Assembly (NCBI GenBank): GCA_004022145.1
Contig: RCNU01000042.1
Strand: one strand, 5' to 3'
Origin: Paecilomyces variotii
Lineage: Eukaryota
DNA length: 21,710 nucleotides
Positions within the stretch are counted from its first letter, which is position 1. Each line of letters opens with the position of its first letter. A model generated the notes under the pieces. That model made no database searches. It was not told where the DNA came from and worked only from the letters and a program-made list of their open reading frames with translations. This document shows, one piece after another, positions 1 to 21,710 of the stretch. A program made the translations under genes and the position numbers.

Positions 1-3000
1 AACTATTTATAAATAAAAAAAATTATAAGGAGATTATTATTAATATAGCCCTTTACTTTAAATATAAAAATATTTTAAAACTTAAGGGTAATTAGCTTTA
101 ATACTTTATTAAGTTACTTAATTTACCTCTACTTATTAATAAAAAGAATTTAAGTTTAATAATTAGCTATTATAGATTAAGAATAAGTTAAGAATAAATA
201 TTAATTACTATAAAAATAATTATCTTTATATTATATATATTTAGAGCCGCCTAGGTAAAAAGACTATAGCTTATATATTTTTAAGGTTTTATAAAGACTT
301 AAGCCTCTCTTTTTAAATAGCTAAGGAGATATTTAATTATTTTTAAGCTATATTTTATAATTTAAATTATTAATAAAATATAAAATACTAGTTTACTAAT
401 CTATATATAAAGATATATTAAAAATATAATAACTTTCTTATAGAATTTATAAGATTAATAGGTAAAATAAATATTTACCTTAATAACTACTAAACTAAGA
501 TATATAATAAGATTACTCTCTTTTTTAAAAGTCTTATTATTAGCTAATATTATTAAATTAAGGATTTTAATAATTTTAAAGATACTTATTATTAAGCTAC
601 TTATATCTTTTAAAAGAATAATAAAAATAACTATAAGGCTAATTAAAATAAGAACTTAAATACTAGAACTTTTTTTTAAATCTTATTTAATTAATCTAAT
701 AGCAGTTTCTCTACTCCTAGAATTAATATTAAATCTTTTATTATTAACTATAAGACTCTTATAAAAGAAGAGAAGTATTTTTTTTATAAAATAAAGAGAT
801 ACTTTATTACTAATTACTTATTAAAGAAAGTAATAATAAATATTAAAAACTTAGAAATTAAGATAAAGAAAAACAAATAGAACTTAAAAAAAACTAACTC
901 TTAAGCTAAAACTTTAATTTAGGGATTAATAAGGAATTAGTAGAAATTAATCTTAATTGCCTTTTAAAAGATAATTACCTTATTAAATTTAGCTTAATTT
1001 ATAAAAATAAATATAATATTAAGCTCTTTATCTTATTAGATTTTAGAATAAATAAGCTTTATTTCTTTAATAGTTTATTAATCCTATTAATTACTTAGTT
1101 CTTAAACGCCTCCCTAAAATCTCTATATTAATCTATATTTATTAATAGCTATAATAACTAAACTAGAGAATAAATAGATTATATTTTAATTACTAACTTA
1201 AAGATTAATAAGAGAATTTATTTAAACCTCTTTATACTAATTACTAACTTAAATTATTATAACTTAATCTTTAAATAAAAATAAATAGCTAAAAAGTTTA
1301 TCCTTTTAAATATTTAAAATTAATAGCTAATTTAGCTATATAGTAATCTATAAATTTATTAATTTAATAAGAACTAATCGCTATAAAAAAGATCTAATAA
1401 GGCTATTCTTAAATCTTAAATATTAATAAAATGCTAATAGAAGAGACCTATAAATAAAGAAATAAATCTAGATCTTAAAATAAGAAAATCCCCCTTACTA
1501 CTAGCTACTATAAACTAAATAAATTAATATCTAATTAGTTTTAAAAATATAATATAAATTAAAAGATTAAACTAATTGCTTATCTTCTATAATTATATAA
1601 TTATACCTTTTAAAGATAAATATTAAGATAATATTAAATATTATATATATAGGAGCTAAAAGATTCTAGTAAGCATTATATAAAAAGAATATAGAGGTCT
1701 TTATTATTAGCCTATATAAGATTAATAAGATTATTAAATAAAGGTTCTCTATAATATAAAAAAAGTAAAAACTTTTAAAACTAATTTATAAATATTTTCC
1801 TATAGTCTATAAAAACTTTTTTAATATTTTTTTTAAGTAAGTATTAAATAAATTACTTTTTTACTAGCCTTATAATTATAAAATAAAACTTAAAGAAGAG
1901 ATTTCTTTAAAATATTAACCCCTTTATAAATAATTACTAGAGAAACTATAAATACTTAAAGTATATTTAATTAATAATTTAAAGAAAGACTTTATTATAC
2001 CTAACTAGAAGTCTTTTACTTTATTTATTTTCTTTATAAAAAAGGCTAATAAAAGATTATAATTCTATATTAACTATTATTACCTAAATACTATTATAAA
2101 AAAAGATTAATATCTCTTATTATTAATTAATAAAACTTTAGCTAAAATTAGTTAAGCTAAGATCTTTATAAAACTAAATATTTAATAAGTATTTTATAAG
2201 ATTTAAATAGACCTTAGTTTAAAAGCTTTAATAACCTTTTATATAAGATATAGAACTTATAAATATTATATACTTCTCTTTAAGCTTACTAATAGACTAG
2301 CTATATCTAATAATATATAAATAATCTCTTTTTTAACCTGCTAAATAATTATATAAGTATTTATTTAAATAATATCTTAATTTATTTTAATAATAAGTAA
2401 GAGTATTAACTTTAAATAAAAGAGATATTATCTTATTTGTAAAAGGCTAGTCTATAAGCTAATATTAAGAAATATAAGTTCTATATAAAATAGATAAAAT
2501 ATTTTAGTTTTATTATTAGTATAAAAGGTATTAAAATTAATCTTAAGAAGGTTATTATTATTTAAGATTAAGAGCAGCCTAAAATAATCTATAAGGTCTA
2601 TTTATTTTTAAGTTTTTATAACTTCTATAGGAGGTTTATTAAAGACTATAATTATATTATAAGACTAATAATAAACTTAACTAAGGAGAATTACTTATTT
2701 AATTTTAATTAGAAGTATTATAAAGCTTTTAAAATATTAAAAAAGTATTTTTAATTAGTATTAATTCTATATAATTATAATCTTAATAAGAATATATATA
2801 TTAAGATAAATACTTTAAATAGTATTATAGCCGCTATACTTATTTAATAGATAGATAAATAAAATCCTTAGTATTTAATTACTTATTACTTAAAGATAAT
2901 AATACTAGTTAAATATAATTATTTAATTTATAATAAGGAGCTCCTAGCAATTATATAAGCTCTTAAGGAATAATATATAAAGCTTATAAGTTTATAAATA

Positions 3001-5062
3001 GATAAGCTATTTAATATCTTAATAAATTACTATACTCTTAAATATTTTATAACTATTAAAATATTAAATTTAAGATAAGCTTAATAAGTAGAATTTCTAT
3101 CTTATTATTATTTCTTAATTTAATATTACTCTAAAAAGCTAAATATTTTAGCTAATATTCTATTATAATAAAAAAGAAATATTTCCTAATAAAAAGAATA
3201 GATAAACTAATACTAGACTTAGCGCTTACTAGAGCTTAAAATCTTAGATAAATCAATCTAAAAGGAGTTAATAGAATAGAGAACTCTCTTAGCTTTAATA
3301 TTAACTAGAAAATTTACCTTAATAGATAGGATTTTTAGGGAAAATTATAAGAATATTAAACTAGTATTATTTTATAAAGACGCAGGCTAAAAAGGCTTAA
3401 TATATTAATTAATAAAAGAACTCTTATTATATAATAAATAATTAATTATCTTTAATTAAGAGAATTTATAAATATATCTTTTAAATAAAATCTATTATTA
3501 AATCTCTACTATTTATTCTAAATACTAAAAAATATAATAATTAATAAAGTCCCGCTATTACTAGCCCTAAATAATTAATTTTATTAATTAATATATTAAT
3601 AATTATTTAACCTGCTGCTAAACTAAGAATCTTTAAAACTTTTTATTAAAGTTACTTTAATTATTATCTATCTTTAAATAACTATAGTAATATCTCTTAA
3701 TAGATTTCTAATCTTTTTTAAAAGATAAATATAAGTATAATATAGTATTTATTATAGTTAACTATTTTAATAAATACTTTATTTTAATTCTTTATTATAA
3801 TATAGTAATAGTAAGAATTATAGCTAAAATTTTTTTAAATATATATATTATTATAAGGGCGCTCTTAATATAATAGTTTTTAATTAATAAACTTTTAAGA
3901 TAAATTCTATTTATTACTAGAAATAAAATTAAAGCTTTCTTTAACTATATACTTCTAGAGACTATAACTCTATATTAGCTATTATTAAGATAATTAATTA
4001 AACTACTTCTTAATAATTAATTTTATAGCAGTAATATTAACCTAAAAATTAATAAGAATATTCTTATTTACAGTTAAATATAGATATAAGCCTTATATCT
4101 TATTTAACTGGCGAATAGTACTGCAGTTAATCCTAATATTTAAAAAGGCTAATTAAGCTAAAGCTTAGCAATAGATACGCAGACTCTAATAGATTTAAAA
4201 GATAATAGAATTCTCTATTAAAAAGGCTTAAAAATAGTAAAAGAAATAAGTAAATAAATATTATTAAGAGATTAACTTTAATATTAGTAATAAGGTTCTT
4301 ATTAAACTTATAAATTAAATATTTAATTAATTCTTATAAAAGCTTAATAATTAAATAAAAAATCTCTTTAAAATTCTTAAAAAAATAAGAAATACTTAGA
4401 AGCTAAAGCTTCTTAATATTATAAAGATTTACTCTATATTTTCTCTAAATTACCTTTAATAGGCGCTAAATAATCTTATTCTATATTAAGTCTATAAAAA
4501 GCCTCTACTAATTTAAATCTAGGGTAAATTAAAATAAGAAGTTAATAAGATTCTAGCTATTTAGACTAAATATAAGTATTTATAATATTAAGCTACTTAA
4601 AAGAAGTATAATAAAGATAATATAGTATTCTGCTAAAAATTTTAAGAATTTACTATTAAAGGTTTAAGAGTTTTATAATAGATTCTCTAATAAACTTAAG
4701 CCGTTAGCTAATTTAAACTACTAGATTAATTATATTAATAAAAAGATTAATTTAGAGAAATAATAAGATAATAATTATTCTATTAATTTAAGGATAAATT
4801 AGCTTAAATAAAGAGATAATATTATAGCGCTATCTTAGCGCTAACTTAATAAAGAGATAAAGTAAGAAATCTGCTAATAAAACCCCTAACTACTTATATA
4901 ATTTAGAAGTAATTAAGAGATAAAGAATTCTATAAATAAAAGAATTAGAATTCTTTTTCTAAATTCTTTTCCTTTTCTCTCTTTAGCTTAAAGTTCTCTA
5001 TTATATTACTTTACTAGATTAAAAGTATTAATAAATTTAATTTAGTCTGCTTAAGCGTAATA
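1..5062 (+). mobile_element. RIP-inactivated Ty3/Gypsy chromovirus LTR retrotransposon (element 1; 5' end outside window)
   Basis: Motifs in Gypsy order after reverting C>T/G>A: gag CX2CX4HX4C knuckle 776-817; slippery AAAAAAC plus stop 888-897; protease LLD(S)(G) 1033-1047; RT Y-L-D-D-I-L-I-Y (tat tta aat aat atc tta att tat) 2362-2385; RNase H TDASD ~2806-2820 and YDKELLAI ~2929-2952; integrase PWQHLSMDF ~3681-3708; chromodomain WEVDKILA..YQATWKGY ~4535-4610; purine tract then LTR. All frames full of TAA/TAG stops. Confidence 0.93.
4820..5062 (+). repeat. 3' LTR of element 1 (~243 bp)
   Basis: Follows the purine tract aaataaagagataa (~4806-4819). Starts tattatagc (RIP form of TGTTAC..) and ends gcgtaata (RIP form of ..GTAACA), i.e. 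TG...CA inverted ends. Partner LTR not in window, so boundaries are inferred. Confidence 0.7.
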
Positions 5063-5985
5063 ATATAATAAGTCTTAGGCTATATTTTAATAATTCTTTA
5101 TATTAATTTTTAATATTACTTCTTAATATCTTTCTTCTTCTTAATATATTATTAGTTAAGCGACTTAAATTATAAAGAGTTAAAGTATAGAAATTTTTTA
5201 ATAAAGGTAATTAGTTAAACTAATTAAATAAAATATAAAATAAGAGATTAAAATATAAGCGAGTAATAATCTATATATAATAAGGTTAAAGATTAAGTTT
5301 TATAGTAGTTAGAATAAATTATTAATTTATTTAACTTTTATTTTTTAAGAGGTTTATTTATTTATTTATTTAATTTATTAAGTTATTAGAATAACTTAAT
5401 CTTAATAACTATATTATATAACTAGCTAATTTAACTATTATATATATCTAGTTATTTTATTATTTTTTCTCTAAGATTAAGTAAGTTTACTATAACTTTA
5501 GTTTATAATATATATTTAATAATATAATAATATTATTATTAATAAATAAGTTTATCTTTAGCTTATTTACTAAATATACTTTTATTATATTTTATAAGAT
5601 TACCTTTTTCCTTTAATTAATATAGAGAAGTTTAAAATAATATTAAACTAAATATAAGTAATAGTAAAATCTTTAATATTTAATTAATATATTAAAATAC
5701 TTATATATTCTAAAATATATACTCTATTAAGTATAGAATAAATTTATTTATAGTATTTATAATTAATAAAGTATATTTTAATTTAATATAGTTTAAGAAA
5801 TTATATTTAAATATTAGTCTTTATAAGATTTACTATATTATTTTAATTTATTAATAAATATTATAAAATAAAATGTTTTTAATACTATTAATAATAATAC
5901 TAAAGTTTATATTATATATTAAGTAAAGTAAATTACCTTAGTTAGCATAATTTAAAATATAGAACTATATTTTATAATGGCTATA
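5063..5985. other. AT-rich RIP-degraded sequence of unidentified origin
   Basis: TpA-rich and almost free of CpA/TpG like the flanking transposons; no motif I could decode. Confidence 0.5.
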
Positions 5986-6024
5986 ATAAAAAAAAAGAAA
6001 AAAAGGAAAAAAGGAAAAAAGAAA
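5986..6024. repeat. Polypurine (A/G) low-complexity tract at the RIP/GC-island boundary; T/C-rich 3' flank of the deaminase-like gene
   Basis: aaaaaaaaagaaaaaaaggaaaaaaggaaaaaagaaa ends 6 nt from the stop codon at 6031-6033. Confidence 0.8.
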
Positions 6025-6030
6025 CTGCCA

Positions 6031-7159
6031 CTAGGGTGGCGCCCCGGCTTGGCCGCTAGTACTTAAAAAGTTCTGAAGGTTCCCTCCGTATAGACGGATT
6101 AGCACCTGGCAGTTGGGGCAAGGGTCTCTAACCCTCGTCCAAGCAGAACCAGACAGATTATCTTCGTACTGTGCAGCTGTGGTAAAGTCTCGCTGCAAGG
6201 CTAAGCCATGGCAGGTTTCTCTAGTAGGATTGTGGCCCCTGCAACGGTCAGTCTATATCACTCAGGATGGAAGGGAATAGTCGCACTTGAGAAGTCTTAA
6301 AAAGGGGTATGTCTCCGCACAAGTACCAAATCTTTGCCTGTTGTATGCTTGGGGTCCCCTACGAGCAGGGGCATGCACGAAGTCGTATCCAGTCAATTTG
6401 AACGGTTCGTCGTTCAGAGGACGGAAGCGGGCCCGCCTCATAACATACAGCCAGGTGCCTGTCGAAGGTTTTGGCGCATCATACCCTGCCAAGTTTGAGC
6501 CCAGAAAAAACTCGTCGGCCTGGCCGCACCTCTGACGCCATGTACATTGGTACATGTACGGCGTTCGATCTCCAACTGCTGCGCACCATTTTCCGTATAC
6601 GGCCGTCAGAGGCAAGTAGAAATTCCGTTTGCTGGCTCCAGTCGGAGCGCCGCCAATCGTTGACAGAAATAGGCCGAGAAGGTCGAAGATGCCCCAGTAG
6701 TTTAGATTACTGTGAGCGTGGCCTCCGACTTTAAACTTCGAAACGATTACAGGCTGCCGTGATGGGGGCCACGCCGGATTCAACGTTCGGTGTATGTGCT
6801 GGTTTGGCGTCAGAGTAGCTGACGCGTAGTCTGGTCCGTTCGGCGATCTATAAATAGTTAAATACTATAATAACCAAGGAGTTCTGTAGCACGTATTGGA
6901 AATGCAGGACTGGGCCTATACCTTAATCGTAGGATCTCACGCCGAATCCGCTGCAACTCAGTTTGGACATTGGCCGGTACAGCATACGTTGCAGGGTTGC
7001 TGCAAACGTCCTGTAGGAAGGATTCGACCTGGGTATCTCTTTTAATTATTCTGCAGAATATGTCGATCCGAAGTCAGAACGTACCTGTCCAGCGTTGTAG
7101 CTGTAGGCAGCCCGGAGATCTAGCGTCCCGTTAAATGCACGGAGAATGTTCTCTGCCAT
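6031..7159 (-). CDS. Intact 4-exon gene, 316 aa, predicted zinc-dependent nucleotide/nucleic-acid deaminase-fold protein (CAE...PCxxC)
   Basis: Exons 7159-7085, 7028-6922, 6847-6287, 6238-6031 (951 nt, 316 aa + TAG). Introns: 7084-7029 (GTACGT..CAG, 56 nt), 6921-6848 (GTATAG..TTAAC..TAG, 74 nt), 6286-6239 (GTGCGA..CTGAC..CAG, 48 nt). All phases join with no stop: MAENILRAFNGTLDLRAAYSYNAGQ|VESFLQDVC...LRLR|SPNGPDY...FGTCAETYPFLRLLK|GHNPTRETCHGLAL...RDPCPNCQVLIRLYGGNLQNFLSTSGQAGAPP*. CAE at 6321-6313, PCPNC at 6123-6109. The listed ORF 6262-6783 is most of exon 3 read from a TTG and running into intron 3. Gene model well supported; function is motif-based. Confidence 0.88.
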
Positions 7160-7668
7160 ATCTATTGGGATATGCGGAGTTTTATCACTGATACTGCTTG
7201 ATATGGAAACAGCTTCGCAAGTCTTTTGTGCGACGTATTATTGTGAGTAGCAAGAGTATCGTGTGGATTACGCGAAGCACGTAGGAGTCAACAACTATTG
7301 GGGGGTGGGAAAAGAAAACTCCCACTTACAAAACTTTTCAAAAATGAAGTTTCCGACAGAGACTACTTCAAAGGAATACGCCTTCTGCAATCAGGCAAGT
7401 TCATATCGTATACAGAACAAGATGTTATGTTGAGCCAGTCAAGTAACTCTCCGATTATTCCGTTGATACTGAGCTAATGAGGGTAACTCAGCAATCTCCA
7501 ATTCCAAATCAAACAAGACGAAAGGCCACGAAGGACAAAGGAACTGAAGTACAACATTCTTCGAGCTAATCCTCTCCAATTTCATCAGATTAATGAGAGC
7601 TTGCGGTATTTTCAGCAGCGTTGATCCCAGTGTTCCCACCACCGTGGTTTCCGGAGGCAGTATTTGTA

Positions 7669-8065
7669 CTAGCACGCCTTCAACTTCAGTCCACAAGTAT
7701 CCGACTTGTACATTCTCTGCAAGATCTTGTTGAAATCCCGGCTTAACGTGATCTCGAAGACCTCACCAACTAGCTGACCCCATATGTAGAACTTGTCGCC
7801 GGACTTGAATAGGACGCTGCCACAGCCGATATGGGGCTTACTGCACATAATTGGCTGCGGATCAATTAGGCCGTGCTCTCTGGCCATCTCCTGTCCAGGG
7901 CTGTTTGCGTTACCCCAGACAAATCCAACATTGAGTTCTTTGGGATCGGTTGTCCAGTCTTCTGGTGGTTCAAACTAGTCAGAATCATACATCAGTGGGC
8001 CGTTTCATTCTTGGAATAGGGAAACAAGAAAAACGAGCACCAACGTTTCGAGGTACAGAAGCCAT
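7669..8065 (-). CDS. Intact 2-exon gene, 108 aa small protein of unknown function; possible SUKH/US22-like fold
   Basis: Exon 1 8065-8045 (MASVPRN), intron 8044-7975 (GTTGGT..CTGAT..TAG, 70 nt), exon 2 7974-7669 (FEPPEDWTTDPKELNVGFVWGNANSPGQEMAREHGLIDPQPIMCSKPHIGCGSVLFKSGDKFYIWGQLVGEVFEITLSRDFNKILQRMYKSDTCGLKLKAC*). Contains listed ORF 7669-7887. No signal peptide visible. Confidence 0.75.
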
Positions 8066-8490
8066 GACGGATTAAATGGACTTGCAGTTTAGCTTATGCA
8101 GCGGCTTATTTATTTGTTGATAGTCTCGAAGAACACAGCCAGAGAGTACGATTCTGTCTGGCGATGGAGGATAAGGCGATGAGGGCAGAGAGAGACAGGT
8201 GCCTGTGTGAGTGAGTGAGTGGAAAGACTTCATTGACATATTTGGCTGAGGGAGGTGATATATACCAGACCGCGCTAGACCAAATAGAGCTCCAAGCTTA
8301 AAGCTTCACTTCACTAAGTTATCGTTCTATCTGATTATATAATCCCAGATTTGTTTAGGTTGCCACCGACAGACACAGATAACCCTCTATATCTACCTAG
8401 GTACCTACTCTGCTATATCTTCAAGGAAAAGGAAAGCTCTGTAGTGTATTCAAATATACAGTTCATAGTCAACCGGACTTTTTTTATAAG
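8066..8490. promoter_or_regulatory. Probable divergent promoter / 5' UTR region between the 108-aa gene and the Zn2Cys6 gene
   Basis: Lies between head-to-head genes. Contains TATA-like words (8258-8264, 8336-8342) and a tract at ~8165-8225 that is CT-rich on the minus strand, as often found before fungal transcription starts. Positional inference only. Confidence 0.45.
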
Positions 8491-8564
8491 GTAAGTCTCC
8501 AAATTCTGACTCTTCGACCGATGTTTCTACCTCAGGCGACAATACCTAACCTACGCCAACTCAG
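8491..8564 (+). other. Spliceosomal intron in the 5' UTR of the Zn2Cys6 gene
   Basis: AG|GTAAGT donor at 8491, CTAAC branch site 8546-8550, CAG acceptor 8562-8564; 74 nt, consensus fungal signals. Confidence 0.65.
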
Positions 8565-8621
8565 CTGTTGGATTCGAGGACAGCCGTCGCCCAAGACAAC
8601 CATCTTCTTTTTATTCCAACC

Positions 8622-8807
8622 ATACCCGGTGTAGGTGATCGCAGCAAAGGTTGTAAAACCCGTCGAAATAAAAGAGCCAAATGCGGTATGGTTGGAGTCT
8701 AGTTACTTTGTTCACTCATGACCCCTAATAAATGCAAAATAGACAAGAAAATGCCATTCTGCGACCGCTGTCAGCGAGGTAATTTCCACTGTGTCGGCAA
8801 CAACTAG
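8622..8807 (+). pseudogene. Decayed Zn(II)2Cys6 (Gal4-type) transcription factor gene, N-terminal DNA-binding domain; remainder fades into RIP-mutated DNA (~8810-9900)
   Basis: Exon 8622-8685, intron 8686-8742 (GTATGG..CTAAT..TAG), exon 8743-8807 give [I]PGVGDRSKGCKT[R]RNKRAKC|DKKMPFCDRCQRGNFHCVGNN*, matching C-X2-C-X6-C-X6-C-X2-C-X6-C. Lesions: presumed start is ATA, second Cys position is CGT (8661-8663), TAG at 8805-8807. Confidence 0.85.
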
Positions 8808-9946
8808 CTACTCGCAAGATGGTTTACAATAGAATGCATTCTATTCTTCAAACATAATACCCGTAAGGATTTGTAAAATATTGGCGCGGCACAGAAGGCG
8901 CAGAAGAAAATAGCCGGAGGTTATCTTAGCATAGCTCAGACACTTGGCAAAGATTAGTTATTTAGGAGCTAACCTGAATTAGTATACATAATATAGTAAG
9001 AGCTACCTAATTCTTTGCGAAGTATTCCCTTTTCTTAGAATTACTATTAGCTTTTATTATAAGATTAAACCTTTTATATATACTTACTCTAATAAATTTT
9101 AGTATTAATAATTTAAAGATAATTATAAAGTAACTTATAAGTTAATATTATAGCCCTTAAGTACTTAAAAAGATAAATACTAAGCTAGTTATTACTAATT
9201 ATTTAAAATTCTTATTTAATAATAATAAGAGCTTAGAATTAATAACTTATTTTACTTATTAAATATATTAATTATTAATATAAATATTAATAATATATAA
9301 AATAAAGTTAAAATAGTTTTTTTAAGATTAAAGAAAGTCTTTATAAATAAGGTAAAGAAAAAAAATACTTTAATAATAAAATAGTAAGAAAATTATAATA
9401 TTATTAACTTAAATAATTATACTTTAATTAATTATAAAAGTAGTAATATTAAGTTATTATAATATTATATAAAGCTAGTTAATATTATAGTATTATAATA
9501 ACTTTCTTATTTTAAAGGTATAATAAAGTAAGCTTAATTAAATAAGTAAATAAGTTAAATAAAAATAAAGCTTAAAGATATAGTAAAGTAAGCTTTATAA
9601 TAATATTTAATATATACTTTAACTTTAATAACTTACTTAATAATTTTAATATAAAAGTTTAAAATTAATATTATTATAATATAATTTCTTAAAGCTAATA
9701 AAAATACTTAATTAAGAAATTATTTAAGAGTTTAATTAAGTTAAGTTATTTAATTACTACTTTATTAATTAAGCTAATTATTAATATAAGTAACTATTAT
9801 TAAAGCTTTAAGGTATTTATAATAAAATTCTTCTATATCTTTAATTCTACTAATTTATTAAATTTATAAATTTTTTACTTATTAAAGAAAAAGTAATAAA
9901 AAATAAAGAAAAGCTTTTATATATATAAATATTAAAGAGCTTAATA

Positions 9947-10007
9947 AGGGCTTATATCTTAGCTTAGCTAAGGCTAAGCTTAACTTACCCTAAAAGCTTA
10001 GCCTACC
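9947..10007 (+). repeat. RIP-mutated left terminal inverted repeat of the Mutator-like element
   Basis: 40/60 identical to 17304-17363; 19 of the 20 differences are C>T or G>A in the RIP direction. Confidence 0.88.
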
Positions 10008-10143
10008 TTAAAGCTTATCTTTAGCTAAGTTAAGCTTAATCTATCTTATATACAGATTAAGTATAAGCTAATTATATAATTAATATAAAATTAGCTTATT
10101 TAAGAATTAATAATAGTATTTATATAATAAAACTCTTTAAAAT

Positions 10144-10148
<5 letters not shown>

Positions 10149-10177
<29 letters not shown>
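10149..10177. repeat. (AT)n microsatellite, ~14 units
   Basis: Perfect atatat... run. Confidence 0.9.
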
Positions 10178-10180
<3 letters not shown>

Positions 10181-11692
10181 GCTAATATAAAGCTAAGAAA
10201 TATTATTATTTTATCTCTAAATACTTAAAAATAGCTAAGAATTAAATAACTATAATTAATAGCTAAATTAATAGCATTTTTAATTAATAGCTATATAATA
10301 TTCTTATTTAAATATATTTAATATAACTTTTACTAAGGCTAAGTAAATGCTAAATATATATTTAATATTAATTATATTTAAACTAAATGCTAACTCTTTA
10401 TAAAGTAAACTTATATAAAACTATAATCTTTATAAAGTATACTTAAACTAGTTTAAGGATATAATAAATAATTAAAGTAGTATTAATTCTTATATATAAA
10501 GTAAAGATAAAAAATTTAAGATATATCTTAAATTCTCTCTTTATATAGAACTTAATTAAATATATTTTTTTTATAAGTTCTAGTAAGATATATGCTAAAT
10601 ATATTTAAAAGATTATTTCTCTTATAAATATTATTATTAGCTATAATAATATCTTTAAGATTATAGTTAATAATATTTAAAATAAATTATTTATTTTTAA
10701 ATATCTAATAACTTATTTTAATAGTATCTTATATTTTATTTATTAAAAGAATTCTTTACTTTATAACTATTTTAATATAAATATTTATTAAATATTTTAA
10801 CAATTTATATTAAAGGTATATTTATACTTTATCTTAAGTAAATATTTAAGATATTATAAGCATATACTAAATATAGCTTAGATCTAGTTTAAGCTTTATA
10901 CTTAAGGTAATTATAAGACTTTATCTCTTCTATTTTTTTAAAAGGATAAAAAAGATAAAATTTAAAATAAGATATATTATTAAGTATTTAAATGCAGCAG
11001 TATTAAACATTGTAAATATATGCTAAAGCATATGCTTAGATAATACTATAAATATAACTATATTAAATTAAGTATTTTTAAAATGCTTTATAAAAAAGTA
11101 AGTTATATATTTAATATTACTTTTATTAATAAACTTTTTAAAAAAGAAACTAAAAATTAATATAATAAATTTCTTATTTTTAAAATTAATAATTAATAAG
11201 GTATTATTTTTATTTAAAAAATAAAATATAAGTATACTTAAATTAAACTTTAATAATCTTTAAATAATATAAAATAAGTTTAACTCTCTATTTAATCTTA
11301 GTATATGCTAAATATATTCTTAGCTACTAGTTACCTTTATTAGTTACTTATTAGTAAATAATTTTAAATTATAGTATATTATATAAGCTATCTCTATATA
11401 TAGCTTAAATTTATATACTTTATTTATATATTTTAGTAGCTTATAAGATATATAGTACTAATATTCTTATTTAATTTATTTATACTTATATTAATTATAT
11501 TATTTTAAGGTATATAACTTGCAGTAGGTATTTACTCTATATATACTAAGTATATATTAATTATAAGTCTAGGATTTAATTATTCTTAAAGTATATTTAA
11601 AGTCTTATATAAAAAATATAATACTTTAATTAATATTTTTATTCCTTATAATTAAGATTATTTTCTTTTTATTCTTCTTATTTATTAAGAAG

Positions 11693-11980
11693 TATTATAG
11701 TATTAGCCTAGGAAAATCCGCTAGCTAATACTTATATAAGTTAGAAGAGTAAGACTTAACTCTTCTAGATTATATAAGAAATTATATAACCTTATAAAGG
11801 ATATCTTTAGCGTATAGCTTAATCTAGATTTAAGCTTTTTAAGCTATATTTTATTTACTAAGCCTATTTATAATAGCCTATTTTAGTCTAAATTAATTAA
11901 ATAGAGATTTTATAGCTAGTCTTAGTATTAATTACTTATTCTATTTATTTTAACTTACTCTCTAAGCCTGTACCTTAATA
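11693..11980 (+). repeat. 5' LTR of element 2
   Basis: Ungapped direct repeat of 17949-18236; ends tattata...ttaata are RIP forms of TG...CA. Confidence 0.96.
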
Positions 11981-14900
11981 CTATGTAGCTCTTATCTAGA
12001 AGTTAATACTATTAATAATATTTACCCTAATTCTCTTATTTTTGCTAATTATTTTAGAAGAGTTTATTAAGTATATTACTACTAGTTATAGGCTAAAATA
12101 ATATAATTATTATTACTTAGTATATAAATATATTGCTAAGGCTAAGTTATTAATAAATAAAGCTAGCTAATATATTAAATAAATTAAGATAAAATTTTAA
12201 AAACTTTAATAAGAGTTTATAGCTATATAATAAAGACTTAAATAAGAAAATATTAATCTTAAGGCTATTTAATAATATTAAAAGGTATAGCTTAATAAAA
12301 AAGAATAGTAATATATTTAAGCTATTTTTAAAAAGGATTAAGCTTATTATATAGCTATTTCTACTATAAATATATTTATATTTATATTTAAATCTAAGCC
12401 TAATATTAAGAGATCTGCAGTTACTTTAATAAGAGTATTTAAAATATTTATTATTATATCTTTTTCCGCCCCTAAATTTTTAAAAAGACTTCTTAACTTA
12501 AATAAGTTTAAAGATAACTAAAAGAACTTTTAGTACTTTATAATCTAGATTTAAAAAAATAATAATTAATTAAAACTAATTTCTAATCTTTTAAAGCTAT
12601 ATAGCCTATATAACTAATTACTTAAAAGATATATCTTATACTTAAATATTACTATATATTAGAAATAAAATCTATATTCTTAATAATTACTAAAAGATTT
12701 TAAATATCTTAAAATATATATTTAATAATCCTAATTATATAAATAATATATATAATAAATTATTTAACCTTTATTAGATTAATAAGAAATTTAAAATCTT
12801 TTTTATTAAGTTTTAGCGCTTAGCGCTAAAAGGAGAAATACTTAAAAAAATATTATTTACCTTATTTAAGTAAGCTATTAGCTAAGAACTCTAGGATATA
12901 TTATTATATAGCTAGCCTCTAAGTTATAAATATTATTAATTTATTAAGTTCTTATAAGACTTTAAGAACTATTACTACTAATATATTATAAATTAGCCTT
13001 TTATTATAAAGACTTATACTACTATTTTAAGACTTACTTAATATATTTAATCTCCTTTATTTATTTTAAATCCTATTTTAGCTATAAAATATAATAATTA
13101 GCCCTAGAGAAGCTTTATATAAAAAAATAAACTAGCCTTAGTATAGCTATATAATTTAATAAACCTAAGTACTTCTAGACGCTTAAGTAAGAAAAAATAT
13201 AGCTTATTATATTATAAAACTAGCGCTTACTTTTAATATAGCTTCCTAGAATATTATATTAAAGATTATCTGCATTTAAATAACTGCTAGAAGATTTAAG
13301 CTATAGCTATATATAAACCTTACCCTTAGATTTCTTAGATAATCTAGTTCTTAGACTTATATAATCTATTCCTTAGCTAATTTTTAATAAAAGAAATAAG
13401 CCTAAAATAAGTTATAGCTAGGCTTAAAAACTATATATTATTTAAATCTCTATTACTGCTATTTATAGAATTAATTTTAAAGAATATTTATAATAATTAA
13501 AATTAATAATATTATTTATAATATTAGAAAAGAAGAAGAAGAAGATTTACTTATTAATTTATACTCTACTTAATATTAGAGTTAAAAGATAAAGATTTAT
13601 AGATTAAGAATAGGCTAAAGATTAGAAATTAAAGCTTATTCTCCTAAAAAGCCTAATTATTTTATATATATTTAATAAAAGAGAATTAGAGAATAGGAAG
13701 ATTATATATTATATTTAAATAAATATAAGAATTAAGAATTACTTTAAAAAGAATGCTAAGTTTTATATTATTTAACTAGTATATTACCTTATTATTTTAA
13801 GACTCTTCTAGTTAAAGTACTATAACTTATACTTATAATTTATTATCTATAATATTACTTTTAATAATAATTATTATTAAAAAAATTATAATATATTTTG
13901 AAAGCTAATTAAAATATCTACCCTATATAATATTTTTCTACAAACTTTATCTTAATATTTATTTCTAAGACTTAAAGGATTAAAAAAGAGAAATATAGCT
14001 TTTATTTCTCTAACTGCTTATTCTATCTATATTTAAAAAAATATTTAAATATTTATAATTATCTTAAAGAACTTAGATATTACTTTAAGAATTAAATAAG
14101 TTTAAAAAGAAGACTTTACTCGCCTATTACTTAAAAAATTTAAAAATTATATTAATATCTTTTCTTCTAAAGAGATTAAGTATCTATTATTATATTATTT
14201 TTATAATTATAATATTAAGCTATTAGAGAGAAAGTTACTCCCCTTTAAACTCCTATATATTATATCTTAAGATAAATTAAAGATCTTAAAAAAATAGATT
14301 AAAAAAAACTTAAAAAAGGGATTTATCTGCCTAAGCTTATTACCTATTATATTCTTAATTCTATTTATTAAGAAGCTTAGTAAAAGAATATAAATCTATA
14401 TAGATTATTAAGCCCTAAATATAATAATTATTAAAGACTAATATTCTCTACCTTTAATTAAGAAGACTTTAAATAATTTAAAAGGAATAAAATATTCTAT
14501 AAAAATTAATATTATTTCTATATTTAATAATCTTTATATTAAAAAAAAATAAAAATACTTAATTACTTTCTATACTTAACTTAGCCTATTTAAATTATTA
14601 ATAATACTATTTAGCTTAATAGAAGTATTAATAATATTCTAATAGTTTATTAATAATATTCTATAAGATTACCTTAATATCTTTTATACTATATATCTTA
14701 ATAATATCTTAATATATAATATAACCTATTCTAAATATATTTAATATATCTATATTATTTTATAGAAGCTATATAAAATAGGCTTATATATAAAGATTTA
14801 AAAGTATAAGTTTATTATCTTTAAGATTAAGTTTTTAAGTATTATTATTAGCTAAGACTATATTAAGATAAACTTAAATAAGATAAAAATAATTATTAAA

Positions 14901-15786
14901 TAGAAGACCTTAATTTATATAATTTATATAATTAATATATAAATCTTTATTAAGTTTAGTAACTTTTATTATTAGTTTATTTATAACTTTTCTAAGATAA
15001 TTATATTGCTTATAAACTTAATCTAGAAGAGAGTTTTCTTTAATTAAATACCTACTTATTAATCTAGTTTTAAAGCTTTAAAAAAAATATTTATTTAAGC
15101 CTTAATTTTAAAGCTATTTAATTAAACTTATAAAGTTATAATTAAAACTAACTTATTTAATTATATATTAGCTAAAGTTATATCTTAATATAATAATAAA
15201 AAAATCTTATATCTTATTATATTTTTTTTAAAAAAGCTTTTTATTATAAAATATAATTATAAGATTTATAATAAAGAACTATTAATAATTATTTATTGCT
15301 TTAAGAAGTAGCGCCCTAAGCTTAAAGATATACTATTATTAATTAAAGTTATTACAGACTATTATAATTTAAAATATTTTATATTAATTAAGCTATTAAA
15401 CTAATAATAAGCTTATTAGTCTAAGTTCTTATCTTAATTTAACTTCTAAATTATATATTATCTTAAAAAATAAAGAATAAAATCTAATACCTTAATTAAG
15501 AGATTAGAAGATCTTTTTAAAAAGAGAAATAAACAGCTATAATATTAGAGCTAAATAATCTTAAAGAAAGAGAACCTTAACCTATAAATTTAGAGATTCT
15601 TAAAACTAGAAGTTATTATTAGGAGTTAAATAGTAAGGTATATTTACTTTACTAACCTAATAGCTTAAAAGATTAGAAATCTTATTAAATCTATAAGAAT
15701 ACTTACTTAATTTATTTTAAAAAGTTAAATTATTTAATTTAGAGAATCTATTTAGTTTATTTTATTACTTAATTAATTTATTAAGA

Positions 15787-15870
15787 TTATTTAATCTATT
15801 AAAAGAATAATTTAGCCTATTAAAGAAGCTATTTAGCTTATTAAAGAAGTAGCCTCGCCTATTAAGTAAA
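15787..15870 (+). repeat. Four degenerate 21-bp tandem repeats in the RNase H-integrase linker of element 2
   Basis: ttatttaatctattaaaagaa / taatttagcctattaaagaag / ctatttagcttattaaagaag / tagcctcgcctattaagtaaa. Confidence 0.75.
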
Positions 15871-17302
15871 ATTAGCTAAGTTCTCCTGCTATATTTAATA
15901 AACTAGAATATTTATTTAATATTAAAGATTTATTAAATATAACTTATCTATTTAATAATTTAATATAGTTTATTCTATAAGCCTTAGACTATAAAGCTAA
16001 TTATTATCTTAAGATTATATTAGCTAATTATTAATAAAGAGGAAGATATTTATATTATAAAGACTACTTATATATTTTTAATTATAATAAGCTAAGAGCT
16101 TACTTATTATAAAAATACTATAATAAGTATATATTTAAATACTTTAAAAAATATAAGCTTTATAACTTAATCTTATAAGAGTACTATTAGTTAAATATAT
16201 ACTAATATATAAATTATTAGACTTAGAATTACTATATTTATTATTATATTATATTCTTAAATAAAGGCTATACTAGCTTCTTATCTCTAAATATTCTTAG
16301 TAAAATATCTTAATAGATTTTATTACTAGACTTATACTTTATTAAAGTTATAATATTATATTAATTACTATAGACTAACTTATAAAGATAAGATACTTTA
16401 TTTCTTACTAAGCTATTTATAATATTAAAGAAGTAGTATAATTATATATCTGCTATATATAAAAGCTTTATAAATTATTAAAGATTATAGTATTTAACTA
16501 AGGCTTTTAATTTATTACTACTTTCTAGAAATACTTAATTTAATATTTAAATATTATAAACTTATTATTTATTACTTATTACTCTAAGATTAATAATTAG
16601 ACTAAGAGAATAAATGCTATTTTAAAATAATATTTATACGCCTATATTAGCTATTTATAAGATAATTAGATTAACTAGTTATTTTTAGCTAAATTTATAT
16701 TAAACTTCTACTATTTTAAGATTATTAAAGTATTATTTTTTTTTACTAACTATAGGTTTTATTTATATATAGGATTTAAGCCTATTTAGCCTATAAACTA
16801 GCCTGCTATTAGAGATATTAAAGCCTTTATTAAAAAAATATAAGATATTATAAATTATATCTATACTTAAATTTATATTGCTTAAGCCTATTATAAAGAG
16901 TAAATTAACTATTATTAAACCTTAGCTTATTATTATTATATAGAATAATCTATTTAATTAAATACTTAGAATATTTATATTTAATATCTTTAAAAGAAAT
17001 TTAATTAAAAGAATCTTAATTTATTCTATATTATTAAGATTATTAACCTATATACTTACTAGCTAGACTTACTTACCTTAATATATATTTATTTTATATT
17101 TAATATTAGCCTGCTCTATTCTATTACTAAAGACTTTATATTTAAATAGAGATAATTTTCGCTATTACTTATTAAAGTTAATAGCCTTAAGAAATAAGTT
17201 ATTAAAGATATTTTAAACTTCTAATAGAAATATTAAGATTATAAAAGGCTTTAATTATAATATATTATTAAGTAATTAGGTTATAATAATTTAATTAAGA
17301 AG

Positions 17303-17822
17303 CGGGCCTACACCTCGGCCCAGCCGGGGGCGAGCTCAGCCCACCCTAGAAGCTCAGCCCACCCGAGTATTTTTACCATTTTTTAAGTGGGCCGAGCTTT
17401 TAAACTAAAAACTTCAAGAATTTATTAAAAGTCGAAACCTAAAGATATTTCACTCGAAATTAAATATTTATATAGGTTATAACCTATATCTTATATATAT
17501 AAAAAAAGAAAAATTAAATATCTAAAAATCGATTTTTAAGAATTAAAAAACCAAGAAAGATTTGTAATTTTCGAATTTCTATGTGTAATTTACTAACTCT
17601 TGCCCTAGCGTACCCAATTAAAATCCTAAAATCCTAATTTTAATATATAATGTAGACTAAAATATAAATTATTTTATAATATTTTTTATATATTTCTACT
17701 ATGCCTAAATAGGCTAGGAAAAATCAAAGTTTCTTGGGGTGCGCCGAGATCCCAAATACTTGGGTGGTATGAGCTTTTAGGGTGGGCTGAGCTCGTCCCC
17801 GGCTGGGCTGAGCTACATCCCG
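17303..17822. mobile_element. 520-bp non-autonomous Mutator-like element (MITE) inserted in the chromodomain of element 2
   Basis: Perfect 9-bp TSD ATTAAGAAG (17294-17302, 17823-17831); ~70-bp imperfect GC-rich TIRs (17303-17372 and 17754-17822), CGGG...CCCG ends; no ORF. Removing it rejoins the chromodomain reading ..KWSGYDDPTEE|PAYYL.. Confidence 0.95.
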
Positions 17823-17948
17823 ATTAAGAAGCTTATATATTATCTATAGTATATTTAAAAGATTATTACTAACTTTTATTACCGCTATTTAAATAAGTTA
17901 AAACTAAAAGATAGTTTTAATAAAGCTTAATCTTAAGAAAGAGAATAT

Positions 17949-18236
17949 TATTATAATATTAGCCTAAGAAGATTTACTAGCTAATATTTATATAAGTTAA
18001 AAGAGTAAGACTTAACTCTTTTAAATTATATAAAGAATTATATAATCTTATAAAGAATATCTTTAGTATATAGCTTAATCTAGATTTAAGCTTTTTAAAC
18101 TATATTTTATTTACTAAGTTTACTTATAATAGCCTATTTTAATTTAAATTAGCTAAATAGAGATTCTATAGCTAGTCCTAATATTAACTACTTATTTTAT
18201 TTATTTTAACTTACTCTTTAAGCCTGCACCTTAATA
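17949..18236 (+). repeat. 3' LTR of element 2
   Basis: Direct repeat of 11693-11980, preceded by a purine tract and followed by TSD AGAAG. Confidence 0.96.
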
Positions 18237-19754
18237 AGAAGATTATATATATTTTCCTCTATTACTAACTAAGTTAAGTTAAGATTTTATTTAAGAACTT
18301 ATAGATTTAATTAACTAAAGGAATATTCTTACTATAACTATATATATATTATATATACTTTAAATCTATACCTTATATATACTAACTAAATACTTATAAA
18401 TAAATTTTTAATATTTCTAGAAGTATATGTATTTAAATAAAAATATTAAGGTTAAGCTTTAAATTTAATTAGAGCTTCTTTAAATATTAAGAATAAAATT
18501 ACTTATTTAATTTAAAAATAAGAACTTATATAATATTTATTTAGTTTAAATATTACTAGTTAGAATTTATTCTTACTATATATTTTATATATATTAATAT
18601 TATATAGAGGTTATATAAGAGTATAAGTTTAACTAATATAAAAAAAATAATAAATAATAAATTTACGCAGTTAATATTAATAAAATTAGAGAATATATTA
18701 TTATTTATTATATAAATACTTAAGTAAAAGTATTTATAAAAGCTAAATACTTTAAAATAAATTTAGCTTATAAAATAGTACTTAGAAATTTAAATATCTT
18801 TTTAATCTTAAGCTAGAATTTTAAAGCTAAATATATATTTAACTTATTTATTATAAAATAGCAGTTAGAACTAGTAAGTATTATAGGGAATTATATAACT
18901 TTATTATATAGTAAGGAAATAAATATTTTAAGATAATTTATAATAAGAAAATAATAATAATAATAATTATAGTTTTACTTCTTATATTTATTCTTTTAAG
19001 TTATTTTTCTAGATTTAGAAGAAATAAGTCTTACTATAATTAAATCTATTTCTTTTAACTAGTTATAAGCTTAGGTTTATAATAACTTAGGAGAAATTAA
19101 GTAATATAAAACTCTTTACTTAAAGCTATAAGATTTAAAATAATAATAATAAGCTACTCTTATATAAGAGGACTTATAATAAGATTACTCTAGTATTTTA
19201 AGATTAAGTATTAAATCTAATAAGAATTAAAACCTATTAAAGGTTAGAAAATTAACTTACTATAAAAATATTATTAATAAAAAATATTAATAATTAAAAG
19301 AGAAAACTTACTTTTATCTTTTTAAAAGAGAATTATAAGAAGTAATTTTCTTATATAAGGAAATAGCTTATTAATAAGAACTGTTAAAAAGCTATTAAAT
19401 TAAATAAAAATCTATATAAAGCTATATATAATAAAACTAATATAACTATATAATACTAGATTACTAAATACTTATCTAAAGATAATTAAAATAGATTTAT
19501 TAACTTCTTTAATATAAAAGTATTATAAAAGGCCCTATAAATAAAATATTAAAAAACCCTTTTTACTTAAAGATATTAGTTTATTTAATTATATATATAT
19601 TTTTAAATAACTCTTAAATAAATAATCTTAAATATTTAGAGGTAATTATAATAAATAAGAAAGAGAATTATAATATTTAATAATATAATATTTTTTTTAG
19701 CTAAATTAAAAGTTAAAATATAATAATTACTCTTAATATTATTTAAAGAATATA

Positions 19755-21710
19755 TATTATAAAGAAGACTCGCGGGCTTACTGCCTTTAGGGCTTATCGC
19801 TTTATTTTACTAGTTATATTATATATATTAGTAACCCTACTTCTCGCGGGACTTAATAGAATTTAACCTTCTTATACTTTTATAATGCTAATAATTTAGT
19901 AGTATATTTAGTCTATTTAAGGCTTAACTAGAACTAGAACTAGAGAACTATTTCTAGTTTATTTAAGCCTTAAATATTATTTTACTTAAGATACTATCTA
20001 AGGGCCTAGCCTATAGTATTAGATTTAGGCTATATTATATCTTTTTACTTCAGATATTTACTTAAATTTTTACTTAAAGATAAGTATTTAAGGGCGAAAA
20101 GTAAAGACTTATATAAACTTAAAAGTAGCAGTTCTAATAGCTTAAGAGAAAACTCAGATAGCTTTAATAAAAAAAAAGATAGTTCTAATAAATATTTTAC
20201 AGATAAGGGGCTTAAATAGCTCTCTTCTAGAAAAAAAGAACTTTATTAAAGGGAAGAGAGCTATTTAATAGAGGAGAGAGGGTTTTTAATAGAGAAGAAA
20301 AGGCGCTTAATAGAAGAAAATAATACTTAACTATCTATATATAATAATAACGCCCTTAAATATATATACCTTAATAGATTTATAAGCTTAACTATTCTTT
20401 TATATTTAAGAATATTAATATATTCCTTTTACTAGAATAAGAAAGTAAAGTTACTTAATAAATCTCTTACTATTTTATAGAAAGTACTTATTATTTAATT
20501 AAGAGTTAATTAGTTAATTATTTATTCTATAAGGTAGAAGAAAATACTTATTCTTAATAGTTTTTCTCTTAAGGATATTATATTTATTATAAAGAGGGCT
20601 AATATTAAAAGTAATCTTAAAGTAAAGTAAAAGGTAATAATAAAATTAATAAGTAATAGAATATTCTAGGGAAACTAATCTTTATAACTTAATATTCTAC
20701 TATTATTCTGCCTAAAGGCAATAAATTAAAATACTATTAAAATAAGAGAGAGTAAGAGAGAGAATAAATAAATTACTGCTATTACTATATTTTAATCTAA
20801 TATAGTATACTATTAAACTATAGTATATTATTATAACTATTAAAATTCTATAAACTAGAATTAAATAAAGTAAGCTAGCTCTTAAAATAATCTAATAACT
20901 TAAACTTAAATAATATATATTAAATAAAATAACTATATTTAATAAGCTAGATATTATAAACTATTTATAAAAAATCCTTAATAAATATAATATTTAAGAA
21001 GATTATAGTTTTATAAATATATTAAAGAATTAATAAATAAAGATATTACTTAAAGAAGGCTAAGAAAGATATTTACTATACTATAGTAAGGTTTATTCTT
21101 TTAATCTTAAAAATAAAGAAGTTATTAATTAAATTTTTAATAAACTCTATAAATAAGGATAAATATCTTAAATAAAAGGATATATACTTAATAAATATTT
21201 TATATTTATTATTTAGAAGATAATTAAGAAGAATAGTATTTAAATATATAAAGAATATATTATAGTTAATATTAGACTATTAAACTATAAAATAGAACTA
21301 GATATTTATTTAATTTTAATTTAAGATAATATTCTTATAATAATTAAAGAATATATATATATTTCTATCTTTAATATTATCTTGTTTTTTACTAATAGTA
21401 AGTCTTTCCCTTATATTAATTAAAGCTAGCTGTTATAATATATTATAGCTAAAAAATCTTTAATATTATAGTAATAGAATTCTATAATATACTTACTTAT
21501 ATATAACGGCTAATAAATTTCTATTTAAGAAAGCTCTATAAATTTATATAAATCTATATTAATAATCTTATTATCGCCTCTTAAATACTGAAATAATATA
21601 AAGAATATTTATATTTTATTTTTTCTATCTTATAAGATTTAAATATTACTCTAAATTTAAAAAAGTTATTTATTAAATTTCTGTCTATAACTCTATTAAG
21701 CAGATATATT
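19755..21710 (+). mobile_element. RIP-inactivated Ty3/Gypsy-type retrotransposon of a different lineage (element 3); runs off the window; left boundary uncertain
   Basis: De-RIP translation of ~21088-21580: KVYPLDPKDKEVIDQTFDKLHEQGRMSW..YPVFVVWK..KGRVVVDIRPLN..DVYPIPTQDDIL..FDAISFFYQWRV..THRGQEIFNVAVMGFCNAPAYVQRLMD..YIDD (21555-21566). RT call is firm. Candidate short LTR 19755-19893 followed by PBS-like tttagtag is tentative. Confidence 0.85.

Follow-up and report, generated by a model that had tools for sequence, protein, structure and literature searches.

We describe a pair of adjacent, intron-bearing genes in a stretch of DNA from the mold Paecilomyces variotii (GenBank assembly GCA_004022145.1, contig RCNU01000042.1); the stretch is 21,710 nucleotides (nt) long and is called the window here. 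The larger gene encodes a protein of 316 amino acids (aa) whose C-terminal half resembles the cytidine deaminase fold at modest scores, and the smaller gene encodes a 108-aa protein for which a SUKH-like fold is the best-supported, though not proven, description. The two genes are transcribed, recur side by side in other fungi, and are occasionally joined in one predicted protein, and we consider it very likely that they form a functionally coupled pair. Our preferred reading of this coupling, which we hold at about even chances, is that the small protein restrains a harmful deaminase, the two together making a poison-and-inhibitor pair.

Two adjacent genes are spliced and transcribed

Both genes lie on the minus strand. 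The large gene runs from an ATG at 7159 to a stop codon at 6033-6031 through exons at 7159-7085, 7028-6922, 6847-6287, and 6238-6031, and the small gene begins with an ATG at 8065 and has exons at 8065-8045 and 7974-7669. An initial annotation, made from the window's letters, had proposed two spliced, co-oriented genes 509 bp apart; the coordinates bear this out, and three of the four introns were seen spliced in RNA. The spacer between the coding regions (7160-7668, minus strand) is covered without a break by a single contig from one RNA-labeled run, and a 107-aa open reading frame (ORF) at 7439-7762 that overlaps it found no support.

Transcription was assessed by comparing four RNA-labeled public runs (X1 to X4) with the region. 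In run X2, one contig of 2038 nt extends over 6025-8220 on the minus strand. Missing from it are exactly 6239-6286, 6848-6921, and 7975-8044, all with GT..AG borders on that strand; run X4 confirms the joints of the introns at 6239-6286 and 7975-8044. The RNA thus confirms three of the four introns and shows transcription of both genes, although one contig over both genes is no proof of a single transcript. Beyond the small gene the contigs continue to 8220 (X2) and 8204 (X4), defining a 5' untranslated part at 8066-8220 (minus strand), and the promoter presumably lies farther upstream, inside the island of normal base composition that holds both genes. At the opposite end, the RNA contigs stop at ~6025, beside a purine-rich A/G run, aaaaaaaagaaaaaaaggaaaaaaggaaaaaagaaa, which occupies 5985-6024, begins 6 bp past the large-gene stop, and sits on the island's sharp edge. 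Contigs from the metatranscriptome runs X1 and X3 were unspliced at every intron that they covered; because they are unspliced throughout, these runs are uninformative on splicing and may represent DNA or pre-mRNA. Relative to the window they carry G>A changes at 7309 and 7565 and lack 5 nt at 8315, differences that probably reflect strain variation in non-coding parts.

The remaining intron, intron 1 of the large gene (7029-7084, minus strand, 56 nt, GTACGT..CAG), was placed by the existing annotation and by colinearity with homologues. Every RNA contig that covers it, including that of X2, keeps it, and its retention introduces an in-frame TAA 13 codons into the intron, the next exon being without a methionine. 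Intron 1 is probably real, because its removal yields a product that aligns colinearly with the homologues. Splicing that is inefficient or regulated could account for its retention in X2, as could the path that the assembler chose; contigs lose minor forms, and retention is not evidence of non-function.

Both genes have annotated P. variotii counterparts, each a hypothetical protein: one of 310 aa, which the main exon of the large gene matches at 100% identity, and one of 108 aa, which the small gene matches at 99%. The deposited 310-aa model ends in ...FLSTSG, and the frame in the window (6031-6051, minus strand) adds QAGAPP before the stop; the deposited model is probably six residues short, because homologues, like the window frame, end in GAPP. 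Neither protein has a hydrophobic N terminus or a membrane-like segment on the Kyte-Doolittle scale (no dedicated signal-peptide predictor was run): the maximum mean over 10 residues within the first 50 aa is 0.66 and 0.81 for the two proteins, in keeping with the earlier claim that neither carries a signal peptide.

The two genes are linked or joined in other fungi

To survey linkage, Joint Genome Institute metagenome contigs were scanned with the large-protein alignment, which gave 20 fungal-type loci, and the small gene was sought in these with tblastn and a hidden Markov model. A small-gene relative adjoins the large gene in eight of the 20, at distances of 120 to 570 bp and in three arrangements. 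Six loci (L005, L006, L010, L011, L014, and L015) are head to head, that is, divergent, with 120 to 440 bp between the genes; L008 has the genes in tandem with the small gene upstream, as in the window (337 bp); and L017 is tail to tail, or convergent (~570 bp). Among the 12 loci without a small-gene relative, 10 have less than 300 bp of upstream and less than 600 bp of downstream flank. The other two, L018 (large-gene relative at 3710-4294, 33% identity) and L012 (778-1374, 39%), have no detectable small gene; these copies may be orphaned or decaying, or their partner may sit farther off.

The search with the small family also returned four annotated fungal proteins that combine parts of both families, in both orders. 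In P0120 (487 aa, Xylariaceae sp. FL0662B) and P0221 (470 aa, Xylaria digitata) the small domain comes after the entire large protein, P0215 (Lasiodiplodia mahajangana) joins the large C-terminal exon to a small domain behind it, and in P0201 (Aspergillus melleus) the small domain precedes the large N terminus. At the least, these gene models show same-orientation adjacency in four further genomes from three classes. One protein of the small family, P0094, and one of the large family, P0033, are each listed with a contig of 2241 bp, which may be one and the same. Two more proteins, P0095 and P0110, contain tandem duplicates of the small domain, an arrangement reminiscent of immunity-gene arrays.

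Unlinked homologues had been named beforehand as the observation that would speak against a two-gene module. That objection fails: eight of the 20 other loci have the genes linked, and four proteins combine them. Two of the linked loci are long enough to show their surroundings. L005 lies among genes for SET/AWS, DHHC, Coq4, and Sec2p proteins and L008 among genes for MFS, Msb1, and DUF3431 proteins; the DNA of both is free of repeat-induced point mutation (RIP), and no secondary-metabolite genes lie beside the pair in either. Because the neighbors differ between the two loci and are housekeeping genes, the conserved unit is the pair alone.

The large protein contains a candidate deaminase domain

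A word-index search returned 87 relatives of the large protein, with identities to the query of 34 to 51%, even among Aspergillus species. Every relative with an organism name is fungal, the genera being Aspergillus, Coccidioides, Cordyceps, Ophiocordyceps, Fusarium, Peltigera, and Ustulina. The alignment contains the conserved blocks DLLGLFLS, NFYLPLTAVYGRWC, QCTW, FFLGASLAG, and FGNCAETYPF and, where the gene call includes the last exon, HGLAL ... PCxNCxxLI ... NF ... GAPP. The two motifs noted in the initial annotation, CAE and PCPNC, fall within these blocks at 6321-6313 and 6123-6109. The first belongs to a G-T-C-A-E stretch (6313-6327, minus strand) that would provide a zinc ligand, Cys237, and the catalytic Glu239, and the second (P-C-P-N-C, 6109-6123, minus strand) would provide zinc ligands 2 and 3, Cys288 and Cys291. 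Each of G235, C237, and E239 is kept by at least 90% of the 40 relatives in the alignment, G235 being nearly invariant, and C[AG]E[TS]xP occurs in 79 of 90 family proteins. PCxxC was found in 13 of the 20 related metagenome loci, 12 of which also have the CAE motif; its absence from most protein calls arises because they stop at a conserved intron.

Sequence searches gave no link to a described family: no Pfam family matched the large protein or any of the 40 relatives at E values up to 10, and neither single-sequence nor profile searches of PDB sequences returned a match. An AlphaFold2 model was built from the 40-sequence alignment and had a mean predicted local distance difference test (pLDDT) score of 80.6 and a predicted template modeling (pTM) score of 0.84. 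It has a helical N-terminal region and then a deaminase-like domain at about residues 130 to 310. Within that domain the predicted order is CAE, a helix (241-248), a strand (257-263), and PCPNC, which opens a further helix (289-297), so that the two motifs would stand at the N termini of consecutive helices one strand apart, as in the deaminase fold. The model also has inserts: ~60 residues, partly helical (~179-236), before CAE, and ~24 residues between strand 257-263 and P287. The protein ends 19 to 25 residues past PCxxC in 10 of the 12 family proteins that have both motifs; the other two are fusions.

A Foldseek search of the PDB with this model gave no match at E ≤0.001. We also report a structural alignment of the model with each of 48,161 representative chains, by a tool that sets its caution line at a Z score of 8. 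The best chain was the cytidine deaminase 3b8f (Z 6.2; root mean square deviation [rmsd], 3.1; 109 residues aligned), followed by the blasticidin-S deaminase 3oj6 (Z 5.8) and by 2g84 (Z 5.5). The matches cover approximately residues 130 to 310. Proteins titled as deaminases make up 21 of the first 25 rows and 25 of 50 rows, and they include TadA/ADAT, dCMP deaminases, and the toxins DddB, DddA, and a type VI secretion (T6S) cytidine deaminase toxin. These modest scores suggest that the C-terminal half of the large protein has a cytidine-deaminase-like fold, of three alpha/beta/alpha layers that superpose on solved deaminases; we make the assignment because the match list is homogeneous, two catalytic motifs are present, and both are placed at the starts of consecutive helices. 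The deaminase fold named in the initial annotation is in this way supported at the structural level, by a modest Z of 6.2 to 3b8f, and is not supported by any Pfam deaminase match.

Pattern scans of 185,579 species genomes confirmed no prokaryotic relatives of either protein; distant bacterial relatives are possible because such scans need near-exact short motifs. When ESM Atlas was queried with residues 100 to 310, the third-ranked cluster (score, 0.93; representative, 364 aa; 114 members) was 100% Eukaryota and most commonly Chordata, which may reflect contamination, a shared fold, or transfer. The idea that the large protein is itself the deaminase of RIP is unlikely: the family is scattered among genera, and no Neurospora protein is among the 87 matches.

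The small protein has a probable SUKH-like fold

The small protein and its 54 relatives matched nothing in Pfam (E up to 10) or in PDB sequence searches. A profile of the family, run against 1.84 billion representatives, found 241 proteins at E ≤0.001, most of them 70 to 140 aa long. Twenty clusters were looked up; 10 of them bear organism names, and every one of these is ascomycete (Aspergillus, Penicillium, Apiospora, Xylaria, a Xylariaceae species, and Lasiodiplodia). The 54-sequence alignment contains no conserved stretch. Five long proteins (P0096, P0122, P0164, P0179, and P0183; 800 to 4212 aa) give 7 to 14 matches each to the core of the profile. Multi-repeat matches of this kind (for example, P0164, P0122, P0183, P0199, and P0225) were rejected as motif-level false positives, because the three that were scanned, P0122, P0164, and P0183, carry beta-propeller families such as SGL (Lactonase in P0164 only); a G-x-K-x-Y-hydrophobic-W strand motif probably mimics a propeller blade.

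The confident AlphaFold2 model of the small protein (pLDDT, 93.6) runs from a pair of short helices through a sheet of four strands and a long helix to a last strand. No PDB entry reached E ≤0.001 in a Foldseek search with this model. In the comparison with the 48,161 chains, the best was a member of the SMI1/KNR4 family, 3d5p_B (Z 6.3; rmsd, 3.3; 88 residues aligned). Other matches were a Fasciola cystatin (6i1m_A, Z 5.5), chain D of the Bacteroides Tde1/Tdi1 toxin-immunity complex (8g0k_D, Z 5.3), chain B of the RhsPWHH-RhsPI toxin-immunity pair (8bd1_B, Z 5.2), the cystatin-type CsStefin-1 (5zc1_A, Z 5.0), coronavirus SUD-C (6mwm, Z 5.0), Atu4351 (6itw_A, Z 4.8), PSPTO_5518 (2pag_A, Z 4.0), Knr4 (5j1b_A, Z 3.7), and Syd (3ffv_B, Z 3.6). 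When the Foldseek candidates were re-scored, 8bd1_B came first, at Z 4.8 versus 3.3 for the next row; its immunity partner, RhsPI (VP1518), is named as a SUKH-SMI1 member in a passage of a now-retracted paper. ESM Atlas gave weak leads to a US22 cluster (0.89) and an SMI1_KNR4 cluster (0.85). A library of viral folds returned betaherpesvirus proteins in 23 of 50 rows, together with one row labeled Syd and one labeled US22, all at E >0.7 and none significant; several of the betaherpesvirus rows (UL24, UL28, US24, US26, and DR6) are proteins of the US22 family. A SUKH-like fold is the best-supported description of the model and is not proven. With respect to the SUKH/US22-like label given at the outset, the structural part survives, with SMI1/KNR4 as a modest best match, and the family part does not, no Pfam SUKH model having matched.

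The pair resembles bacterial toxin cassettes and differs from them

For the YwqJ clade of deaminases, Table 1 of Iyer et al. 2011 (PMC3239186) lists a Gx[CH]xE motif, an insert between strand 3 and CxxC, frequent truncation after helix 3 or strand 4, SUKH3 or Imm6 proteins as immunity partners, and occurrence in basidiomycetes. The window family has G235-T-C237-A-E239, which fits Gx[CH]xE; in the model, inserts stand before helix 2 and before PCxxC, and the chain would end after strand 4. Like a YwqJ cassette, the locus encodes a small alpha+beta protein next to the enzyme, with SUKH as its nearest structural match, and a weak ESM Atlas lead (0.79) goes to a bacterial cluster with PF14431 in 11% of its members. 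Against these likenesses, PF14431 matches none of the 40 relatives and the Pfam SUKH models are unmatched, and the fungal pair, unlike the cassette, consists of eukaryotic nuclear genes with introns, exists in fused forms, and has no prokaryotic relative found. The relation to the YwqJ clade is one of resemblance, not membership. The large protein also departs from bacterial polymorphic toxins more generally: no Pfam domain was found in its N-terminal part, and it has no RHS-type or secretion module and no hydrophobic N terminus.

The T6S deaminase toxins DddA (with DddI, 6u08/8e5d), DddB (9k3e), and that of Pseudomonas syringae (9c63) match the large model at Z 3.5, 3.4, and 2.4, and the DddI immunity protein weakly resembles the small protein (Z 2.8). 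The logic would be the same, a dangerous deaminase encoded beside a small binding protein; however, these matches score below those of housekeeping cytidine deaminases, and the toxins are delivered between bacteria. The best matches, the homotetrameric cytidine and blasticidin-S deaminases 3b8f and 3oj6, have the CxE + PCxxC form of zinc site in common with the large protein. They differ from it in sequence (~12 to 13% identity) and in that the large protein has inserts of ~60 and 24 residues, ~130 extra N-terminal residues, and a C-terminal truncation; in addition, the large protein has a conserved partner gene.

A conflict or incompatibility role has been proposed for the OTT_1508-like fungal deaminases in the corresponding section of Iyer et al. 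2011 (PMC3239186). The window family differs from these in lacking GxxK before CxxC, where it reads ...W(T/E)x(V/L)(R/W)D, and in lacking helix 4 and the extended loop after strand 4, where the protein ends; PF14441 matches none of the 40 relatives, and that section describes no separate partner gene for the OTT_1508-like clade. As for the partner, the small protein is like the SUKH superfamily in its best match, SMI1/KNR4, and in that its gene adjoins one for a toxin-type enzyme, as SUKH immunity genes do; it differs in being 108 aa long, versus 130 to 220 aa for the matched chains, and in its modest Z scores, which are tied with those of cystatin-like folds. Among fungal poison-antidote drivers, Spok and wtf have poison and antidote tightly linked or in one gene. 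Their protein families are unrelated to the window pair, for which no drive phenotype is known.

A proposed restrained poison or a possible cooperating enzyme

What was observed at these loci is the genes, their transcription and splicing, the conservation of the motifs, the fold resemblances, and the linkage and fusions; catalysis, substrate, binding, inhibition, and biological role are what we infer. We propose that the large protein would be a zinc-dependent enzyme of the deaminase fold in which Cys237, Cys288, and Cys291 hold zinc and Glu239 shuttles a proton. The small SUKH-like alpha+beta protein would bind the deaminase and keep it inactive in the producing cell, by analogy with the SUKH immunity proteins that restrain bacterial polymorphic toxins, and the pair would act within the cell, because neither protein has a secretion signal. 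A mutagenic or toxic deaminase would be freed once the inhibitor is lost, outcompeted, or absent, as might happen when cells fuse, on infection, or in a nucleus or spore that does not carry the pair. We favor a toxin-immunity-type module because the catalytic site is conserved, the architecture is of the toxin type, the neighbor has an immunity-type fold, gene order is shuffled while linkage is kept, fusion occurs occasionally, and the small domain is duplicated in places. Retention of intron 1 may act as a second safety catch on the toxin. As a broader and tentative proposal, possible but somewhat doubtful, the Pezizomycotina may carry a nuclear, intracellular counterpart of the bacterial deaminase toxin-immunity systems, a mutagenic or toxic nucleic-acid deaminase held latent by the SUKH-like inhibitor, separate or fused, with release of the enzyme serving genome conflict, either by the killing of non-carrier spores or fusion partners or by triggered hypermutation or suicide on infection by viruses or mobile DNA.

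Several observations weigh against a restrained poison. Toxicity, binding, inhibition, and deamination are all predictions. The Pfam deaminase models match 0 of 40 large-protein relatives and the PDB profile search was empty; among the 54 small-protein relatives there is no SUKH, SMI1_KNR4, US22, or Syd match in Pfam at E values up to 10. Structural Z scores are under the caution line of 8 for both models, and for the small protein, cystatins (Z 5.5 and 5.0) and SUD-C (Z 5.0) tie with the immunity proteins. The histidine listed as conserved in the YwqJ insert is not among the conserved columns of the fungal alignment, and with no prokaryotic relative detected, descent from bacterial toxin cassettes is unsupported. 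L012 and L018, which have usable flanks and no small-gene relative, are true negatives at the sensitivity of the search, and the four joined forms are known as eukaryotic gene models only, not at the DNA level. The sole RNA contig that spans the large gene keeps intron 1, which would truncate the protein. A prediction of the complex of the two proteins scored 0.00 in two runs made without the proteins' own alignments or controls, and it speaks neither for nor against binding.

The main rival to a poison and its inhibitor is one that we regard as unlikely overall: an editing or modification enzyme of two cooperating subunits, acting on a specific RNA or DNA target, without toxicity, in which the small protein is a positive partner that targets or stabilizes the enzyme or presents its substrate. 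Fusion and shared promoters agree with it just as well. The joined polypeptides, in both orders, in four gene models, the divergent promoters common to the pair in six of the eight linked loci, the single RNA contig over both window genes, and the conserved catalytic motifs all count in favor of such an enzyme, and eukaryotic SUKH-domain proteins such as Knr4/Smi1 are protein-binding adaptors. Immunity domains fused to a deaminase are, however, on record in one bacterial clade, OTT_1508 with SUFU, in the relevant part of Iyer et al. 2011 (PMC3239186). Pointing away from an editing enzyme, none of it decisively, are the bacterial immunity proteins among the best structural matches of the small protein, the tandem duplication of the small domain in some proteins, a family identity of just 34 to 51% even among Aspergillus species, and a truncated, insert-bearing deaminase form of the kind listed for toxin clades. 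The catalytic motifs bear as well on the idea that the large protein is a non-catalytic zinc-binding scaffold with purely structural Cys and Glu residues. Modest fold scores and the lack of a sequence-level link to deaminase families would suit a scaffold, yet the CxE glutamate, unneeded for metal binding, is conserved in at least 90% of relatives and the motifs stand at the expected helix starts, and we consider this idea very improbable.

That a free-nucleoside cytidine deaminase and a blasticidin-S deaminase lead the structural matches raises instead the idea of a small-molecule deaminase, a divergent relative of these tetrameric enzymes, acting on a nucleoside, a base, or a nucleoside antibiotic, in salvage or self-resistance, with the small protein as an accessory; enzymes of that class use the CxE + PCxxC form of the motif. 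We think this a poor candidate in view of the conserved pairing and fusion with a SUKH-like protein, for which we know of no counterpart among salvage enzymes, the large inserts, C-terminal truncation, and extra N-terminal region, the failure of Pfam dCMP_cyt_deam to match any of the 40 relatives, and the absence of secondary-metabolite genes beside the L005 and L008 pairs. Those same two loci bear on a special case of the poison-and-inhibitor reading, a selfish toxin-antidote drive element (spore killer) or an incompatibility locus. Tight two-gene linkage in variable arrangement, a different neighborhood in each long locus, and the solitary position of the window pair in repeat-derived DNA would all suit such an element, and conflict or incompatibility roles have been proposed for fungal deaminases of bacterial origin in parts of Iyer et al. 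2011 and Zhang et al. 2012. However, the RIP-rich setting is not conserved, the L005 and L008 pairs lying among housekeeping genes, and a literature search for a deaminase spore killer or antidote found no fungal case; this special case seems to us distinctly improbable.

The window pair occupies an island in RIP-mutated DNA

GC content is 0.42 to 0.52 over 6001-9000 and 0.10 to 0.27 in the rest of the window. The ratio (CpA+TpG)/(ApC+GpT) is 0.09 and 0.15 in the two flanks versus 1.08 in the island, and TpA/ApT in the flanks is 1.37 to 1.38. The flanks are heavily RIP-mutated, AT-rich DNA around an island of ~3 kb with normal composition, which holds both genes and their upstream region (6031 to ~9000) and is not RIP-mutated by GC content or dinucleotide index. 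Six of the seven stop-to-stop ORFs of at least 80 aa in the window lie within the island. The left flank (1-6000), with its RIP-type bias, has none; the seventh, at 12150-12425, is AT-rich low-complexity text, as are the right-flank ORFs of at least 55 aa.

The right flank (9001-21710), which has the same type of bias, includes two direct repeats of 288 nt each, at 11693-11980 and 17949-18236. They are spaced 6256 bp apart and share 89% identity; the 31 positions at which they differ are without exception C/T or G/A transitions. We read the repeats as probable long terminal repeats of a RIP-mutated retroelement of ~6.5 kb; the putative transposon origin of the flanks rests on this repeat pair. 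The isolation of the genes in RIP-mutated repeat DNA, as first described, holds for the flanks of the window and does not extend to the two long related loci, which lie in normal DNA among housekeeping genes. The RIP- and repeat-rich setting is particular to the window locus and is not conserved.

Significance

Parts of Iyer et al. 2011 (PMC3239186) and Zhang et al. 2012 predict that fungi acquired toxin deaminases, maybe for use in conflicts, and part of a 2025 survey reports a Pfam-recognizable SUKH-3 protein in Aspergillaceae as a candidate transfer from bacteria. In a full-text literature search we found no description of this family pair, of a conserved fungal pair of a deaminase and a SUKH-like protein, or of a fusion of the two, with the limit that these proteins might be among those listed in the supplements to the 2011 and 2012 papers. 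The logic and the folds are known from bacteria; new are the eukaryotic, intracellular, intron-bearing, and sometimes fused setting and two families that carry no annotation.

If the preferred reading, a poison and its inhibitor, is right, those two families would gain an annotation, and the compact deaminase with its natural protein inhibitor would be of the kind of pair that has been useful before for base-editing tools. The pair would also offer a two-gene system for testing for new spore killers, incompatibility factors, and antivirus or antitransposon mutators in molds, including relatives of Aspergillus and Penicillium. A bacterial toxin-immunity-type pair of enzyme and inhibitor would then be conserved and working within eukaryotic cells, and the partner “immunity” gene would be the first direct sign that a fungal toxin-type deaminase endangers its own cell and is actively restrained.

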